The position numbers were made by a program, and so were the translations under genes. A DNA stretch of 29,296 bases, from contig CALJHI010000118.1 in assembly GCA_938075575.1 (NCBI GenBank), positions 1 through 29,296 on the forward strand, given 5' to 3'. The DNA comes from an uncultured SAR86 cluster bacterium (GTDB lineage: Bacteria; Pseudomonadota; Gammaproteobacteria; Magnimaribacterales; D2472). The notes beneath the pieces were generated by a model. It did no database searches and had not been told where the DNA came from. It worked only from the letters and a program-made list of their open reading frames with translations. Positions 2,888-8,819 of this stretch are shown here, piece after piece. How positions within the stretch are numbered: position 1 is the stretch's first letter; each line of letters starts with the position of its first letter.

Positions 2888-3379
2888 ATGAACGAAAGTA
2901 ATGCTTATAGGTTAAACGTAGGGCTAATCATTGTAAATGATTTTGGTAAAGTCTTACTGTGCAGAAGACAAAATAGCAATCGATGGCAATTCCCTCAAGG
3001 CGGCATTGATGGAAAAGAGAAACCTGTAAATGCAGCAAAAAGAGAAATGTTTGAAGAGGTTGGTATAAAGCCTAAATCTGTGAAGCTCATTGGGAAAACA
3101 ACTAATTGGGTAGAATATAAGGTGCCTAGAGAAAAAATAAAATTACATTTTAAAAAAAAGGGGATAATCGGCCAGAGACAAAAATGGTTTATGTTTAAGT
3201 TAAAGGAAGATGTAGATATCTCATTTGATAATGATCCAGATAATGAATTTGATAGTTATTCTTGGGTTTCTTATTGGCACCCTCTCTCTAAAATAGTTTC
3301 ATTTAAAAGACATGTATACCAAAGGGTCTTACATGAACTACTCCACAACTATAATAATGAGTTTTTAAATGATAATTGA
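2888..3379 (+). CDS. rppH: RNA pyrophosphohydrolase
   Basis: YRLNVGLII, WQFPQGGI, Nudix box GGIDGKEKPVNAAKREMFEEVGI, GQRQKWF, WVSYWHP, FKRHVY. Confidence 0.95.
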   Translation: MNESNAYRLNVGLIIVNDFGKVLLCRRQNSNRWQFPQGGIDGKEKPVNAAKREMFEEVGIKPKSVKLIGKTTNWVEYKVPREKIKLHFKKKGIIGQRQKWFMFKLKEDVDISFDNDPDNEFDSYSWVSYWHPLSKIVSFKRHVYQRVLHELLHNYNNEFLNDN

Positions 3380-4160
3380 AGCTATTGGATACTTGCTAGC
3401 AGGTTCATTCGCGGGGATTCTCGCTGGAACATTCGGAGTTGGAGGGGGAATTATTATTGTTCCTGTTCTAGTGCTTATTTTTGGTTTAATAGGGTTTGAT
3501 AATCATTACATAGTTCATCTAGCGATTGGTACATCTTTAGCTTCAATTTTTTTTACAGGCATATCATCCACAAGGTCACATTTCTTAAAAGGTGGTATCA
3601 ACTTTCAAGCCTTTTATCCAGTAGCTTTTGGTATATCTATTGGTTCGATAGTTGGCGTTCTGATAGCAAACAATTTAAGTGCTGACGTGTTGAAATATAT
3701 CATAGGTATATTTGCACTATTCATTGCAGCTCAAATGCACCTAGTAAAAGAAAATGATAAGACCTTTAGGCCCTCAAAAGGGCTATCATTTGCTGTTGGA
3801 TCTGGTGTAGGAAGTATTTCAACTATTCTTGGTATTGGAGGCGGTAGTTTCACTGTGCCTTTCTTTAGGTATTCAGGATTAGATATGAAAATATGTGTTG
3901 GTACTGGAGCAGCGTGCGGAATTCCAATTGCTCTATTTGGGTCCTTAACCTTTGCTATTCTAGGTTTAGAAAATTCTGATTTGCCAAATTACAGCATTGG
4001 ATATATTTATCTCCCTGCTCTCATTGGAATATCAGCGTCAAGTATTTTTACTGCTTCAATTGGAGCTACCATTGCTCATTCAATATCAGATAAAATGTTA
4101 AGTATGCTATTTTCATTGATGATGATTACCATATCTATGTATATGTTATTTGCGAGCTAA
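3369..4160 (+). CDS. Sulfite exporter TauE/SafE-family membrane protein
   Basis: Multi-TM protein with internally repeated GxFGVGGG...VP / LGIGGGSFTVP and AIGTSLA motifs. Its position before lgt matches the Pseudomonas-type order. Confidence 0.88.
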   Translation: MIIEAIGYLLAGSFAGILAGTFGVGGGIIIVPVLVLIFGLIGFDNHYIVHLAIGTSLASIFFTGISSTRSHFLKGGINFQAFYPVAFGISIGSIVGVLIANNLSADVLKYIIGIFALFIAAQMHLVKENDKTFRPSKGLSFAVGSGVGSISTILGIGGGSFTVPFFRYSGLDMKICVGTGAACGIPIALFGSLTFAILGLENSDLPNYSIGYIYLPALIGISASSIFTASIGATIAHSISDKMLSMLFSLMMITISMYMLFAS

Positions 4161-4163
4161 CCT

Positions 4164-4958
4164 ATGATTATTGAATTGTCTAATTTCTTTAACAACCCAA
4201 GTATAGTAGAGCTTGGGCCTCTAAAGATTCAATATTATGCAGCTACATGGCTCTTTTCTGCAGTATTTATTTATTTATTTCTAAGAAGCCATAAAATTAT
4301 TAAAGACTTTGGATTTTCATATGAAAAGGTTAGTGATCTAGTATTTACCTATGGCCTTTTCTTTGGCGCATTTGTAGGTGGAAGAACTGGTTACATGCTT
4401 TTTTATGGAACTGACCAACTTCTTTCCAACCCTTTGTCAATATTCTTTGTTTGGCAGGGAGGTATGAGCTTCCATGGCGGTTTGCTGGGTGTGGCGATTA
4501 GTTTCTATGTTTTTTCTAGAAAAAATAATGTTGATTTTTTAAAACTATGTGATGCTCTTACGCTATCAATGCCCATAGGTCTGGGTTTAGTTAGGCTTGG
4601 TAATTTCCTTAATGGCGAACTTTATGGAAGACCAACTGATGGAAGTTGGGGTTTTATTTTCCCTACAGATTATTTAGGAATTGCAAGACATCCCTCTCAA
4701 CTGTATGAAAGTTTTGGAGAGGGATTATTACTTTTCATTATTTTGAAGTTTATTTACTCACGTAATAGTGAAAAAGGTATAGTTTGCTCATCATTTCTTA
4801 TCTTTTATGGATTGATACGATTTATAATTGAAAATTATAGAGAGCCTGATTCTCATTTAGGATTCCTTATATTTGATCTAAGTATGGGTCAGATATTATG
4901 TATTCCTATGATTGTTATAGGTCTATTGATACTGAATAAATCTAGGAAAGTCGCATGA
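4164..4958 (+). CDS. lgt: Prolipoprotein diacylglyceryl transferase
   Basis: GGRTGY, GGMSFHGG, GLVRLGNFLNGELYGRPT, RHPSQLYE, RFIIENYREPD. Confidence 0.97.
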   Translation: MIIELSNFFNNPSIVELGPLKIQYYAATWLFSAVFIYLFLRSHKIIKDFGFSYEKVSDLVFTYGLFFGAFVGGRTGYMLFYGTDQLLSNPLSIFFVWQGGMSFHGGLLGVAISFYVFSRKNNVDFLKLCDALTLSMPIGLGLVRLGNFLNGELYGRPTDGSWGFIFPTDYLGIARHPSQLYESFGEGLLLFIILKFIYSRNSEKGIVCSSFLIFYGLIRFIIENYREPDSHLGFLIFDLSMGQILCIPMIVIGLLILNKSRKVA

Positions 4959-5818
4959 AAGCATATTTAGAACTTTTAGAATACATCCTTAACAATGGAG
5001 AGGTTAGAGATGATCGAACCAAGACTGGTACTATTTCTTCGTTTGGTCATCAACTTCAATTCGATTTAGAGAATGGATTTCCCGCTATCACCACTAAATC
5101 ATTAGCCTGGAAGGGTGTGGTTTCGGAGCTATTATGGTTTTTAGAGGGTTCTAGTGATGAAAGAAGGCTGGCAGAAATTAGGTATAAGAAATCAAGAAGT
5201 GAATTAACAGATCTTGCAAAGTACTCTACTATATGGACTGATAATGCTGACAATCAAGGAAAAGAATTAGGCTATATAAACACCGAAACTATTAAAGAGC
5301 TTGGTCCTGTTTATGGTGTTCAGTGGAGAAACTGGTCGGGTACTGATCAAATAAAAAAACTACTAAATGACCTAAAAAATAATCCTGATGGAAGAAGGCA
5401 TATTCTTTCAGCATGGAATGTTGACGAATTAGATAAAATGGCCCTGCCGCCTTGCCACGTAATGTCACAATTTTATATAAGTAATGGGACTATAAGCTGC
5501 CATATGTACCAAAGAAGTGCTGATATGTTCCTTGGTGTCCCGTTTAATATAGCTAGCTATGCTTTATTGCTTAGTATATTAGGAAAAATTCTTGATCTAA
5601 CTCCTAAGAAATTTATCCATTCTTTTGGCGATGCCCACATATATAGCAACTCAATAGAGCAAGTTAAAGAGCAGCTGTTAAGAGAGCCCAAACCTTTGCC
5701 TAAATTAATAATCCCTGACCTAAAATCAATAGATGATATCAAGGATTATACTATCGATGATTTTACTCTAAAGGGTTATGAGCACCACCCGCCAATCAAA
5801 GCAAAAATGGCCATTTAA
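4955..5818 (+). CDS. thyA: Thymidylate synthase (ThyA; T4-phage-like indel pattern)
   Basis: DRTKTGT, ELLWFLEG, LGPVYGVQWR, ALPPCH (catalytic Cys), YQRSADMFLGVPFNIASY. ATGA overlap with lgt. Confidence 0.97.
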   Translation: MKAYLELLEYILNNGEVRDDRTKTGTISSFGHQLQFDLENGFPAITTKSLAWKGVVSELLWFLEGSSDERRLAEIRYKKSRSELTDLAKYSTIWTDNADNQGKELGYINTETIKELGPVYGVQWRNWSGTDQIKKLLNDLKNNPDGRRHILSAWNVDELDKMALPPCHVMSQFYISNGTISCHMYQRSADMFLGVPFNIASYALLLSILGKILDLTPKKFIHSFGDAHIYSNSIEQVKEQLLREPKPLPKLIIPDLKSIDDIKDYTIDDFTLKGYEHHPPIKAKMAI

Positions 5819-5819
5819 A

Positions 5820-6305
5820 ATGATAATTTCTCATCTTGTAGCTGTATCAAAAAATAATGTAATTGGAAAAAATAATGATCTTCCATGGAAGCTTAAAAGA
5901 GACCTACTCCATTTTAAAGAATACACAATGGGAAAAACCATAATAATGGGAAGAAAGACTTATGAGTCTATTGGAAGGCCACTGCCTAAAAGAAATAATT
6001 TTATTATTTCATCAACTATTAATAGAATAGAAGGTGCGTCAATATTTTCAAGCCTAAAGGAAGCAATTAGAAATGTTCCTGGTGATGATGAGGCTGTAAT
6101 AATAGGCGGTGGATATCTATTTAATGATTCTATAAATTACTTTAATAAGTTAGTTCTGACTTTAGTGGATTGCGAAATTGATGGAGATGTATTTTATCCA
6201 AAAATTGATTTAAAAAAGTGGAATCTAGAGGACTCAATCGATTTTAAGAAAGACATTGATAATGAGTATGATTTTTCTGTAAAAACTTATACTAAGAATT
6301 TTTAA
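5820..6305 (+). CDS. folA: Dihydrofolate reductase
   Basis: VIGKNNDLPW, D..HFK, IIMGRKTYESIGRPLPKR.N, IIGGG, GDVFYP. Start ATG 5820 lies 1 nt after the thyA stop; the track's 5778 extension is spurious. Confidence 0.95.
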   Translation: MIISHLVAVSKNNVIGKNNDLPWKLKRDLLHFKEYTMGKTIIMGRKTYESIGRPLPKRNNFIISSTINRIEGASIFSSLKEAIRNVPGDDEAVIIGGGYLFNDSINYFNKLVLTLVDCEIDGDVFYPKIDLKKWNLEDSIDFKKDIDNEYDFSVKTYTKNF

Positions 6306-7698
6306 TAAACTCTCTTCTTAAAGCCAAGTTCTTTACTCTTACTTCTTCATTTTCTGTATATCTAATCCAGTTATTGGCTGTAGAAATAACTTTCTTATCT
6401 TTATCTCTTGCTGCAATATTAAATTGCTTCTTAGCCTCATCAAATCTCTGCAATTCAAAGTAGGCTTGGCCAAGAGTAAGATGAACTTGAGAAACTTTAG
6501 AGATTTTTCCTTTATCTAAACCCTTTTTAATTGATTCTATAGCAAGTTCTAACTTATCTTCTGCTAGATATAAATTTCCAAGCAAAACATAATTCTTACC
6601 TTCTTTAGACATTTTTGCTGCTTTTTCCAAAATTGGTATGGCCTTATCTATTTCCTGAGACATTCTCCAAGAGTCTGCCAACAGTCTTAGATTTTTTTCT
6701 GAGTCTTTTACAACACTAACTATAGTCTCTTCCTTGGTTTTATCATCGACCTTGGTAATTTTTTTAATTCTTCCAGCCTCAAGAACTTTGGCTGCTTGAT
6801 ATGGGTTTTGATTAAGTAACAAGAGCTGGGCCAATGTGACATATTCAGTTTCTTTGTCTAAAAGATCTTTTAGATATGCTGAATTTAAAGTGACCATAAA
6901 ATCTTTTTCTCTGTCGAGTTGGCCATACGTCTGGCCTAATCTTACAAAATAAGATTTCTTTGGATAGAGATTTACAAGGATCTCATATATATCAACCTGC
7001 TTAAGCATAGCTTTTTTAGGTCCAATTTTATTTTTTAGCTCTTCTACTGATGCAACTATAACTATGTACCAATTTTCTTTAGGCTTATAACCCTCCTCTT
7101 CTGCAAGAGTTATGGCTTTTTCCATATTTAATAAGGATTTATCAAAGTCACCAAGTTGATAGTATGCGGTAGCTAATATTGACCAAGACTGAGCTGTAAC
7201 TTTTTCTACTTGAGCCATCCATTCTAATAATAGATCTACTGATTTTTGAAACTCTTCTGTTGCCATGTAAAGCTGGGCTAAAGTCAATAACCCTGCATTT
7301 CTAAGGCCTAGAGTGACTTCTGGTTCATTAATTAATTTTGTATATGAATCAATTGCTTTTTCTACATCCTCATCAACTATATACATATACCCCCATGAGT
7401 TCCAGAGCACAGATCTATCATAACTTCTTAAGTTTTCTGCATCGTCTCTCAGAGCTCCTAAAAGTTCTTTAGCTGTATCGTAATCTGGATCCTCTTTGCC
7501 AGTCTCCTCATCCATTCTTTCAAGAGCTTCGTAAACTTTAGCCATTCTCTTTGCAGTAGAGGATTGAAGTGCTCTTGCTTTTTTATATTTAATGTTTTGA
7601 TCTGATTTTGCACTAGACTGAGACTGGGTTTCAAAAGGAGTTAAAATTAGTGCAAATGATATAAATATTATTTTTATTACTCTTGTATTAAATTTCAT
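6292..7698 (-). CDS. Exported tetratricopeptide-repeat protein (TtpD-like, last gene of the TonB operon)
   Basis: N-terminal signal-like segment and repeated TPR-like helices (WNSWGYMY, TLAQLY, ILATAYYQLG, LLGNLY, LTLGQAYF). It starts 2 nt after the tonB stop. Confidence 0.85.
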   Translation of the reverse strand: MKFNTRVIKIIFISFALILTPFETQSQSSAKSDQNIKYKKARALQSSTAKRMAKVYEALERMDEETGKEDPDYDTAKELLGALRDDAENLRSYDRSVLWNSWGYMYIVDEDVEKAIDSYTKLINEPEVTLGLRNAGLLTLAQLYMATEEFQKSVDLLLEWMAQVEKVTAQSWSILATAYYQLGDFDKSLLNMEKAITLAEEEGYKPKENWYIVIVASVEELKNKIGPKKAMLKQVDIYEILVNLYPKKSYFVRLGQTYGQLDREKDFMVTLNSAYLKDLLDKETEYVTLAQLLLLNQNPYQAAKVLEAGRIKKITKVDDKTKEETIVSVVKDSEKNLRLLADSWRMSQEIDKAIPILEKAAKMSKEGKNYVLLGNLYLAEDKLELAIESIKKGLDKGKISKVSQVHLTLGQAYFELQRFDEAKKQFNIAARDKDKKVISTANNWIRYTENEEVRVKNLALRREFIKNS

Positions 7699-7700
7699 GC

Positions 7701-8399
7701 TTAATCATCCTCTGCCAAAATAAACGTAAACCTATGGAGCACGCCTTCAACTGCAACAGATTTTCCATCAACCACCTTAGGTTTATATTTTAATTTTAAC
7801 GCAGCTCTTGAAGAAGCACTATTAAACATGGTGCATGGTCTAAATTCTGTATCAGGATTTGAGGGATCTCCACAAAAGCCTTCAACAGGAACAACATCTT
7901 CAACTGTCCCACTTTCTGTAATCGTAAATTTAACAAGGGCATAACCTTGGGTGCCTCTCTCTTGAGCTCTTCTTGGATAAATTGGTGTAACTTTGAATAA
8001 AGGTATATATTCGCCATCCCTAAAAAAGCTACCACTTGTCATTTTTTGAGCCTTTGGCTTGCTGATTGTTACATCTAAGCCTGTAAGTGGTTGAAGGTCA
8101 ACATCAGGCTGGGCAATATCTTCAGGCTGTTCTTCTGGTTTTTCAGGCTTATCAACCTCGGTCATAAATGTTTCTATTTGTCTCTCGGGCATTACAATAT
8201 CTGCAAGTTTTACAGATTTGTCCTCTTTCATGCTCATATCACCTAAAGAAATAAGCAACACCATTACTGCGAAAAGAACTGTTGTAATAAGAACTGAAAA
8301 AGTAATACCTGCGACCCATCTGTTAGCATTGAATGCTTTTACATATAGGCTATGAATAACTCCGAGTGGAATTGATATTATCTTTAGAACTGACTGCAT
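7701..8399 (-). CDS. tonB: TonB energy transducer (TonB2/TtpC-system type)
   Basis: N-terminal TM, Pro/Glu/Lys-rich spacer (KPEKPEEQPE), TonB_C with PIYPRRAQERGTQGYALVKFTITESGTV and KYKP. Confidence 0.92.
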   Translation of the reverse strand: MQSVLKIISIPLGVIHSLYVKAFNANRWVAGITFSVLITTVLFAVMVLLISLGDMSMKEDKSVKLADIVMPERQIETFMTEVDKPEKPEEQPEDIAQPDVDLQPLTGLDVTISKPKAQKMTSGSFFRDGEYIPLFKVTPIYPRRAQERGTQGYALVKFTITESGTVEDVVPVEGFCGDPSNPDTEFRPCTMFNSASSRAALKLKYKPKVVDGKSVAVEGVLHRFTFILAEDD

Positions 8400-8408
8400 T
8401 TAAACTGT

Positions 8409-8819
8409 TTATTTAGGCTCTGACGCTAATGAAATAGCTGAAACTCCAGCCTCTCTAGCCCCATCCATTACTTTAATTATGGTATCAGCAACGGCTTTTT
8501 CATCTGCCTGGATAACAACAGAGCCTTGAGGATTATCAGCAAGCATTTTCACAACATTTGCCTTTACCTGCCTCACATCTATTCTCCTTCCATCCATCCA
8601 AACTTCTCCAGTTGAGCCAACTGCTATTAAAATTGCAGCATTTTCTTGAGTTTCAGCTGTATCAGAATCTGGTCTATTAATTTCTAAACCTGGCTCTTTA
8701 ATAAAGTTAGCTGTAACAATAAATAAAATTAACATGATAAATACAACATCCAACATTGGTGTTAAATTTATCTCACTTTCCTCTTCTTTTACTGCAGTTG
8801 TAATTGCGTTTCTTCTCAT
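8409..8819 (-). CDS. exbD: Biopolymer transport protein ExbD/TolR
   Basis: INLTPMLDVVFIMLILFIVT (conserved TM Asp), VVIQADE, GGAG RBS. Confidence 0.93.
   Translation of the reverse strand: MRRNAITTAVKEEESEINLTPMLDVVFIMLILFIVTANFIKEPGLEINRPDSDTAETQENAAILIAVGSTGEVWMDGRRIDVRQVKANVVKMLADNPQGSVVIQADEKAVADTIIKVMDGAREAGVSAISLASEPK

Follow-up and report, generated by a model that had tools for sequence, protein, structure and literature searches.

Thymidylate synthase (TS) is an essential enzyme and a classic case study of gene transfer between viruses and cells. We analyzed its gene, thyA, at positions 4955 to 5818 on the plus strand of a 29,296-nucleotide contig from an uncultured SAR86 cluster bacterium (CALJHI010000118.1); this whole stretch of DNA is referred to below as the window. 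The family to which the window belongs is coded f1; in its common ancestor, the canonical thyA was very probably replaced, whole and in place, by an allele of a different ThyA subtype that carries the motif DERRLAEI in an insert of its small domain. This displacement is supported by the f1-wide distribution of the allele, the canonical gene in the slot of the sister families, native flanking genes, a phylogeny discordant with vertical descent, and a foreign signal along the whole gene.

That thy genes move laterally is well documented, and phages have been proposed to carry them (Stern et al. 2010, PMC2826268). In Bacillus subtilis, thyA2 is related to thyP3 of phage phi3T (Tam and Borriss 1998; Stern et al. 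2010, PMC2826268). There, too, a chromosomal bacterial ThyA has phage genes as its nearest relatives, which has been taken as phage-mediated transfer; B. subtilis keeps both of its genes at different loci, whereas f1 has lost the native copy and carries the foreign allele in the ancestral slot. A second precedent is in situ xenologous displacement, which Omelchenko and colleagues reportedly described in Genome Biology in 2003, and in which one gene of a conserved string is replaced while its neighbors descend vertically. The f1 locus follows the same pattern, with vertical flanks, retained synteny, and a discordant thyA, and the swap is a new example of this already described kind of gene displacement. 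What is new is that the instance involves an essential DNA-precursor enzyme, a streamlined planktonic lineage, and a phage-associated pool of alleles. Our literature search found no paper tying this bacterial group to TS replacement.

Comparison with T4 Td and E. coli thymidylate synthase

The Td protein of phage T4 was rebuilt from the T4 record (two exons of 183 and 103 amino acids, 286 in total), and the segments of Escherichia coli TS were taken from a PDB alignment. The original prediction had compared four segments of the window ThyA with T4 and E. coli sequences. All eight segments quoted for these two proved correct, those of T4 being FPAVTTKKLAWK, VWDENYENQAKDLGYHSGELGPIYG, WRDFGGVDQI, and HPPIKGKMAV, the last corresponding to HPGIKAPVAI in E. 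coli, and the alignment bears out that all four window segments side with T4. T4 Td (PDB entry 1TIS) is the same enzyme with the same fold and a similar length (286 versus 287 amino acids). Both proteins have FPA.TTK.LAWK, an enlarged small domain with an NxxNQxKxLGY element, a short WR.(F/W).G.DQ loop, and a C-terminal HPPIK..MA, and the core columns of the window ThyA are T4-like rather than like those of the gammaproteobacterial (gamma) type.

The two enzymes nevertheless differ in several respects. They are ~50% identical overall, T4 Td is without the DERRLAEI motif, and T4 lies outside the clade that holds the window ThyA on the full-length tree. The differences are clearest in the variable small-domain region, which alignment with sister families, phages, and cellular relatives places at residues 64 to 131 (positions 5144 to 5347, plus strand). 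This region holds two insertions (GSSDERRLAEIRYKKSRSELTDLAKYS and NADNQGKELGYINTETIKE) plus the short loop WRNWSGTDQ and is 66% identical to DERRLAEI subtype A, 41% identical to the gamma type, and 38% identical to T4 and T5. The inserts exceed those of T4 by 7 and 4 residues, and the T4-type small-domain sequence STNVNDLRL...NYENQAKDLGYHSGELGP is not matched; T4 and T5-like phages have a related, shorter version of the small domain without the motif. The true relatives of the insert are members of the DERRLAEI subtype. Genomic context differs as well. The T4 td gene has a group I intron and follows frd, and the gene for dihydrofolate reductase (DHFR) also lies upstream of TS in a marine phage (L026); the window thyA, by comparison, is uninterrupted and sits between native lgt and folA, in the order thyA-folA.

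Canonical gammaproteobacterial ThyA (E. coli TS, 264 amino acids; NF002497) is predicted from sequence and model to share the reaction, catalytic residues, and fold of the window enzyme. It occupies the same slot downstream of lgt and gives the top raw PDB and NCBIfam scores for the window ThyA. In contrast to the window type, it is without both small-domain insertions, has a loop after WR.W that is 7 residues longer, and carries FPL.TTK..HL(K/R). Phylogeny and the approximately unbiased (AU) test separate the two types.

The thyA gene and its product

The uninterrupted open reading frame (ORF) at 4955 to 5818 encodes a 287-amino-acid, folate-dependent TS of the DERRLAEI-insert subtype, and its translation gives exactly the residues first quoted for it. 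The thyA ATG overlaps the stop codon of lgt as ATGA, and the thyA TAA is followed by one base and the folA ATG at 5820 (TAA-A-ATG); both junctions, as predicted, can be read in the sequence. The protein has a precomputed match to PF00303 (EC 2.1.1.45) and scores 323 bits against TIGR03284 (cut-off, 108) and 337 bits against NF002497 (cut-off, 327) among the NCBIfam models. Across 25 aligned sequences that include E. coli-type and T4-type enzymes, C167 (LPPCH), R21, R147/R148, R187, and N198 (PFNIASY) are invariant. In this enzyme, the cysteine of LPPCH is catalytic, the arginine residues bind the phosphate of deoxyuridine monophosphate (dUMP), and the asparagine of PFNIASY specifies uracil; this cysteine and asparagine had already been described as intact. 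Contigs from RNA libraries that are identical to thyA exist, covering positions 4935 to 5481 and the thyA/folA junction.

An alignment-based AlphaFold2 model of the protein (predicted local distance difference test [pLDDT] score, 95.2; predicted template modeling [pTM] score, 0.93) was compared with known structures by Foldseek, which returned E. coli, human, and mouse TS at template modeling (TM) scores of 0.86 to 0.88 (0.86 for E. coli). Structure search was rejected as a subtype discriminator, as it does not separate the subtypes: E. coli and human TS come out at the same rank in Foldseek. No match to ThyX or to a second ThyA was found in the source genome, which is 79% complete. Given the intact residues, the canonical predicted fold, and the absence of another TS match in that genome, the window ThyA appears to be an ordinary synthase that converts dUMP to deoxythymidine monophosphate (dTMP), in line with the original prediction, and it is the sole TS found in the genome.

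Distribution of the long allele and gene order

Family f1 is a marine gammaproteobacterial group with genomes of ~1.2 Mb and a GC content of ~35%, the latter matching the window (~35%), within an order of four families whose genomes span ~0.9 to 1.8 Mb. When the allele is mapped across this clade, the long type proves to be f1-wide, and the sister families carry canonical or ~300-amino-acid types. The 287- to 288-amino-acid allele is present in 74/75 f1 genomes (10 genera) at 64 to 88% identity to the window ThyA. It forms a single locus in all matched f1 genomes but one (G504, with two copies on two contigs), and no second match of the canonical type was seen in f1 genomes (74/75 matched, by the long allele only). 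The three sister families have matches in 74/79 genomes, at 46 to 59% identity and with lengths of 262 to 264 or ~300 amino acids. Among 155 genomes of the order, no allele intermediate between the long type and those of the sister families was found, and in a 400-genome sample of the class the long type is limited to members of f1. Matches of 271 to 301 amino acids in seven other genomes of the class (L110 to L116) were dismissed as canonical genes with over-extended starts or as the separate 300-amino-acid type. The order nudix-tauE-lgt-thyA-folA is conserved in loci of all four families, as judged by tblastn.

The ~300-amino-acid type occurs in a few sister-family genera, and its insert is unrelated to the DERRLAEI insert. 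In some genera of family f2 (L015 and L023, from genus g16), a ThyA of this length with a long WNEWPFQ... insert occupies the lgt-thyA-folA slot, and the type resembles the ThyA of an unrelated gammaproteobacterial family (f194; L115 and L116). To judge from these sequences, a second allele change may have taken place in the same order by way of the ~300-amino-acid type.

Phylogeny of ThyA

Trees of 98 ThyA sequences were built under the LG+C20 model with posterior mean site frequencies (PMSF), the full-length alignment having 289 columns. In the full-length tree, f1 forms a monophyletic group (100/99) that nests within the DERRLAEI clade, with successive nodes supported at 93/98, 92/94, and 95/89; a quick tree gave its own support values of 98 for the DERRLAEI split and 95 for the subtype-A set. 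The sister group of f1 (95/89) is a marine mixture of five viral contigs with genomes of HTCC2255, Paracoccaceae, Flavobacteriaceae, and Marinimicrobia and with Robiginitomaculum. The sister families of the order are placed with other Gammaproteobacteria in the canonical clade, and T4 and T5 fall in a separate nine-row group outside the DERRLAEI clade. An AU test on the full-length alignment rejected a tree in which f1 is forced together with the gamma clade (difference in log-likelihood, 110; p = 8e-5).

To avoid circularity, residues 64 to 131 were dropped for a second tree (217 columns), in which f1 is sister (96/82) to T4, a T5-like phage, phiM9, phiM12, and viral contigs. The original prediction had called the allele T4-type and had looked to a maximum-likelihood phylogeny for its nesting within phage sequences. 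The discordance with vertical descent is borne out at full length, but the clade that holds the gene mixes phage and cellular sequences. The T4-type label is not supported by the full-length tree, and f1 sits beside a group that includes T4 only when the insert columns are removed.

Several results weigh against displacement by a foreign allele. In the AU test without the insert columns, f1 placed with the gamma clade was not formally rejected (difference in log-likelihood, 35.5; p = 0.07), the deep ThyA branches are moderately supported and shift with the column set, and the groups for the AU tests were named after the first tree had been seen. Overall scores are nearly flat (274 bits for E. 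coli TS and 268 bits for T4 Td), and the top NCBIfam model is the 264-amino-acid canonical one (NF002497), whose cut-off the window ThyA barely exceeds. Finally, thyA has no compositional trace of transfer: its GC content is 0.365 against 0.351 ± 0.024, and its GC content at third codon positions (GC3) is 1.2 standard deviations above the mean.

The native composition, the top scores to canonical enzymes, and the test without the insert would all fit a history in which the ancestral thyA grew an insert and diverged fast within its own lineage, its phage likeness being convergent or an old shared polymorphism; the unchanged slot and tight junctions would fit it as well. Vertical descent of this kind is nonetheless highly improbable. 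Convergence does not account for insert residues that unrelated phages and cells share at ~66% identity. The AU test at full length argues against vertical descent, as does the lack of intermediates among the genomes of the order.

Extent of the foreign signal along the gene

The insert is by far the strongest foreign signal, which raises the question of a mosaic gene, in which gene conversion imported only the small-domain region and the rest remained of the native gamma type. We compared residue profiles of the canonical gamma group and of DERRLAEI subtype A as log-odds in four segments of the gene. Every f1 member is positive in all segments, with +30 to +76 bits in the N-terminal segment, +107 to +131 bits in the insert, +52 to +74 bits in the middle, and +25 to +67 bits in the C-terminal segment; the total for the window ThyA is +283 bits toward the DERRLAEI profile. 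Left-out DERRLAEI subtype-A controls score like f1, and those left out of the gamma group have negative values throughout. Outside the insert, f1 sequences are 51 to 59% identical to gamma sequences, compared with 64 to 69% for the sister families. Of the sites outside the insert, three are strictly diagnostic (positions 51, 55, and 229), and all of them have the foreign state. Foreign-like scores in all segments, together with the low gamma identity outside the insert, indicate that the whole gene was replaced.

Mosaics of this kind may exist elsewhere. The 287-amino-acid ThyA of Halarcobacter, Campylobacteraceae, and Sulfurospirillum genomes (L119, L147, and L199) looks chimeric: in L119 and L147 the insert gives +106 to +115 bits, compared with approximately −23, 0, and −28 bits for the N-terminal, middle, and C-terminal segments, and in the tree without the insert columns all three sequences move to the canonical clade. 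Arcobacteraceae ThyA proteins, foreign-scoring in the insert only, show what a mosaic would look like. Although they provide a precedent, and although the AU result without the insert could be read in the same way, the f1 segments outside the insert match the left-out controls, and a mosaic origin of the f1 gene is accordingly very unlikely.

Flanking genes and assembly

The gene upstream of thyA, lgt (4164 to 4958, plus strand), encodes a prolipoprotein diacylglyceryl transferase (TIGR00544, 212 bits), and in its tree f1 adjoins f2 and f3, two sister families from its own order. Downstream, folA (5820 to 6305, plus strand) encodes a DHFR with matches to NCBIfam DHFR models, and f1 groups with the sister family f4 (100/99) in the folA tree. 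Phage DHFR forms a separate clade of that tree (100/98) with the DHFR of HTCC2255, Marinimicrobia, and SAR11-like genomes, and co-transfer of folA was ruled out by this topology. As both trees keep f1 within its own order, in agreement with the expectation that lgt and folA follow the lineage, only thyA was exchanged. The codon usage of thyA, for which a comparison with the flanking genes had been suggested, lies within the range of the window.

Misassembly, which would have removed the basis of the finding, was ruled out by the same gene order in 13 further f1 genomes, several of them in one or two contigs. One DNA contig from another run bridges the thyA-folA junction. No contig bridges the lgt/thyA junction with at least 31 letters on each side, the contigs of two of the three DNA runs not spanning the stretch. 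Of the words sampled from the stretch, 95% are present in each of 14 listed DNA runs, which come from at least nine studies.

Further upstream, the conserved synteny block (2888 to 4160) consists of genes for a Nudix hydrolase (2888 to 3379, plus strand) and a TauE/SafE-like membrane protein (3369 to 4160, plus strand). The longest ORF for folA begins at 5778, inside thyA (5778 to 6305); 5820 is the likely true start, since homologue alignments begin at that ATG. Downstream of folA, the minus strand (6292 to 8819) appears from its translations to encode a 468-amino-acid tetratricopeptide repeat (TPR)-like lipoprotein and TonB-like and ExbD-like proteins. No phage-like genes were seen near thyA, the names being taken from a reading of translations only.

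The DERRLAEI-insert subfamily

We delimited the DERRLAEI-insert ThyA subfamily in the present analysis by the motif W-F-x-E-G-[ST]-x-[DN]-E-R-R-L-x-E-[IL] followed by TIWT.NA. Its small-domain insert reads GS.DERRLAEI...TIWT.NA..QGK.LGY.N....K.LGPVYG. The motif is present in the window ThyA and in all 14 aligned f1 sequences, whose small domain follows WFLEGS.DERRLAEIR..K.R.EL.DL.KY.TIWTDNADNQGK.LGY.N....K.LGPVYGVQWR.W.G.DQ; that of the sister families ends, E. coli-like, in ..G..IDQ. The f1 insert is homologous, residue for residue, to that of IMG/VR viral contigs, of phages phiM9 and phiM12, and of several metagenomic cluster representatives; with many cellular ThyA proteins, too, the homology is one of sequence as well as length.

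A degenerate DNA pattern for the motif was scanned against prokaryotic genomes, each species being represented by one. Because the pattern excluded the EIR codon of f1 itself, f1 was skipped by design, and the scan shows presence in other lineages rather than the full number. The subtype was found in at least 120 species-genome matches from bacteria and archaea, in addition to the IMG/VR contigs. Among the matches listed are Arcobacteraceae (including complete chromosomes), many SAR11-like alphaproteobacterial single-cell genomes, HTCC2255, a Paracoccaceae genome, Marinimicrobia, Flavobacteriales, bacteria of the candidate phyla radiation (CPR), and DPANN archaea (Woesearchaeota, Nanoarchaeota, and Aenigmatarchaeota). 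Spot-checked cellular contexts are ordinary chromosome, with genes for M16 peptidase, EamA transporter, aldehyde dehydrogenase, RecQ, and Mrp/NUBPL. The DERRLAEI subtype is therefore neither T4-specific nor confined to phages.

In HTCC2255, Paracoccaceae, Marinimicrobia, and SAR11-like genomes (L121, L179, L133, L118, and L127), folA and thyA both group with marine phage genes and stand in the phage order, folA then thyA; the three that were spot-checked (L118, L121, and L133) have an ordinary chromosomal context. This suggests that a whole frd-td cassette was captured by these lineages or donated by them to phages. In addition, many TS cluster representatives (P0123 to P0135 and many others) are 400 to 560 amino acids long, with the TS match split in two at approximately query residue 115, 130, or 179. 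The split matches point to putative inserted elements within TS genes, for example, inteins, homing endonucleases, or read-through introns.

Donor and direction of transfer

The main reading of the original prediction was a myovirus-type donor. In this reading, td of a T4-like phage was captured during infection and displaced the host thyA. The tree without the insert, in which f1 is sister to bona fide phages, is consistent with such a donor, as is the closest viral allele (L026; 60% identity), which lies on a genuine phage fragment with genes for a clamp loader, thymidine kinase, DHFR, TS, PhoH, virion proteins, and a spanin. Virus-driven transfer of thy genes has also been argued in print, with B. 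subtilis thyA2 from phi3T as a cited case (PMC2826268). However, T4 and T5 lie outside the DERRLAEI clade at full length, and the sister group of f1 combines phage contigs with chromosomal genes of Rhodobacterales, Flavobacteriaceae, Marinimicrobia, and Robiginitomaculum. The closest cluster outside f1 (P0121; 61 to 64% identity) has a cellular context of recA, dcd, thyA, folA, and dut, with thyA between dcd and folA and near recA. Phages also carry frd upstream of td, whereas the folA of f1 is native and lies downstream. A specifically T4-like donor is, on balance, possible but somewhat doubtful.

Identities to phage alleles are modest throughout. No GenBank phage record exceeds 54% identity to the window ThyA, the best being Sinorhizobium phages phiM9 and phiM12; IMG/VR viral contigs are 58 to 60% identical to f1 ThyA overall, none exceeding ~60% to that of the window, and no phage allele as a whole exceeds about 60 to 62%. 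Recent capture from a phage was rejected on these values and on the native composition of the gene. Because the sister group interleaves phage and cellular sequences, phage and cellular donors are not distinguishable, and we consider a phage donor plausible, the chances being about evenly balanced.

The direction of transfer could in principle be the reverse, with phages and other microbes having acquired the subtype from f1, as the original prediction allowed. Direction is not readable from an unrooted tree, and f1 is abundant in seawater, as the DNA runs listed above indicate. Nevertheless, f1 is monophyletic, and no sampled viral or foreign cellular sequence is nested inside it; f1 was therefore not the source of the sampled alleles. 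The subtype is far more diverse outside f1, and the rest of the class holds the canonical type, as do the sister families in the same slot. Donation by f1 is thus scarcely credible, and this part of the original prediction is not supported.

Proposed history of the locus

What we retain of the original prediction is in-place xenologous displacement. The myovirus label is doubtful and a phage origin plausible but not demonstrated, given that the subtype is chromosomal in many cellular lineages and that the sister group combines marine phage contigs with bacteria of four phyla. Under the displacement reading, the common ancestor of f1 would have lost the canonical gamma thyA between lgt and folA, the whole gene being swapped within its slot. 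The incoming allele would have come from a ThyA subfamily that moves among marine phages and several unrelated lineages of cells, most of them streamlined, its donor, like the route, being inferred. As to the route, the native copy may have been lost after the new allele was acquired, or the replacement may have come about by recombination at the locus. Since the allele is fixed in ten genera, the swap should predate the radiation of f1, and the unremarkable composition of the gene and the monophyly of f1 suggest that it is old. After the swap, the gene would have been inherited vertically through the ten sampled genera while its composition drifted to that of the genome.

Significance

The locus is an unusually clean natural experiment, in which a distant homologue took the place of an essential gene present in one copy, with neighbors and tight junctions undisturbed, and then became fixed throughout a family of bacteria that is abundant in the ocean. 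The swap belongs to a class of events, replacement by an orthologous counterpart, that the model of Stern et al. leaves uncounted, as do presence/absence models of thy evolution (PMC2826268). The locus also exposes a large ThyA subfamily common to marine phages, DPANN archaea, CPR bacteria, and several planktonic bacteria.

A broader reading is that a phage-borne, "traveling" DERRLAEI ThyA, often accompanied by a phage-type DHFR, has repeatedly displaced resident thyA or thyX in streamlined planktonic and episymbiotic lineages (f1, SAR11-like bacteria, Marinimicrobia, DPANN, and CPR), the enlarged small domain being selectable rather than a neutral passenger. We regard this as rather unlikely. 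If it were true, the window would be the cleanest single-gene, same-slot case, and the selectable property might lie, for example, in complexes for deoxynucleoside triphosphate (dNTP) synthesis or in conflicts with phages.

For the order itself, the allele type is a simple marker that separates f1 from its sister families. The native enzyme of the sister families and the foreign enzyme of f1 form a pair whose comparison could ask whether such swaps are neutral.

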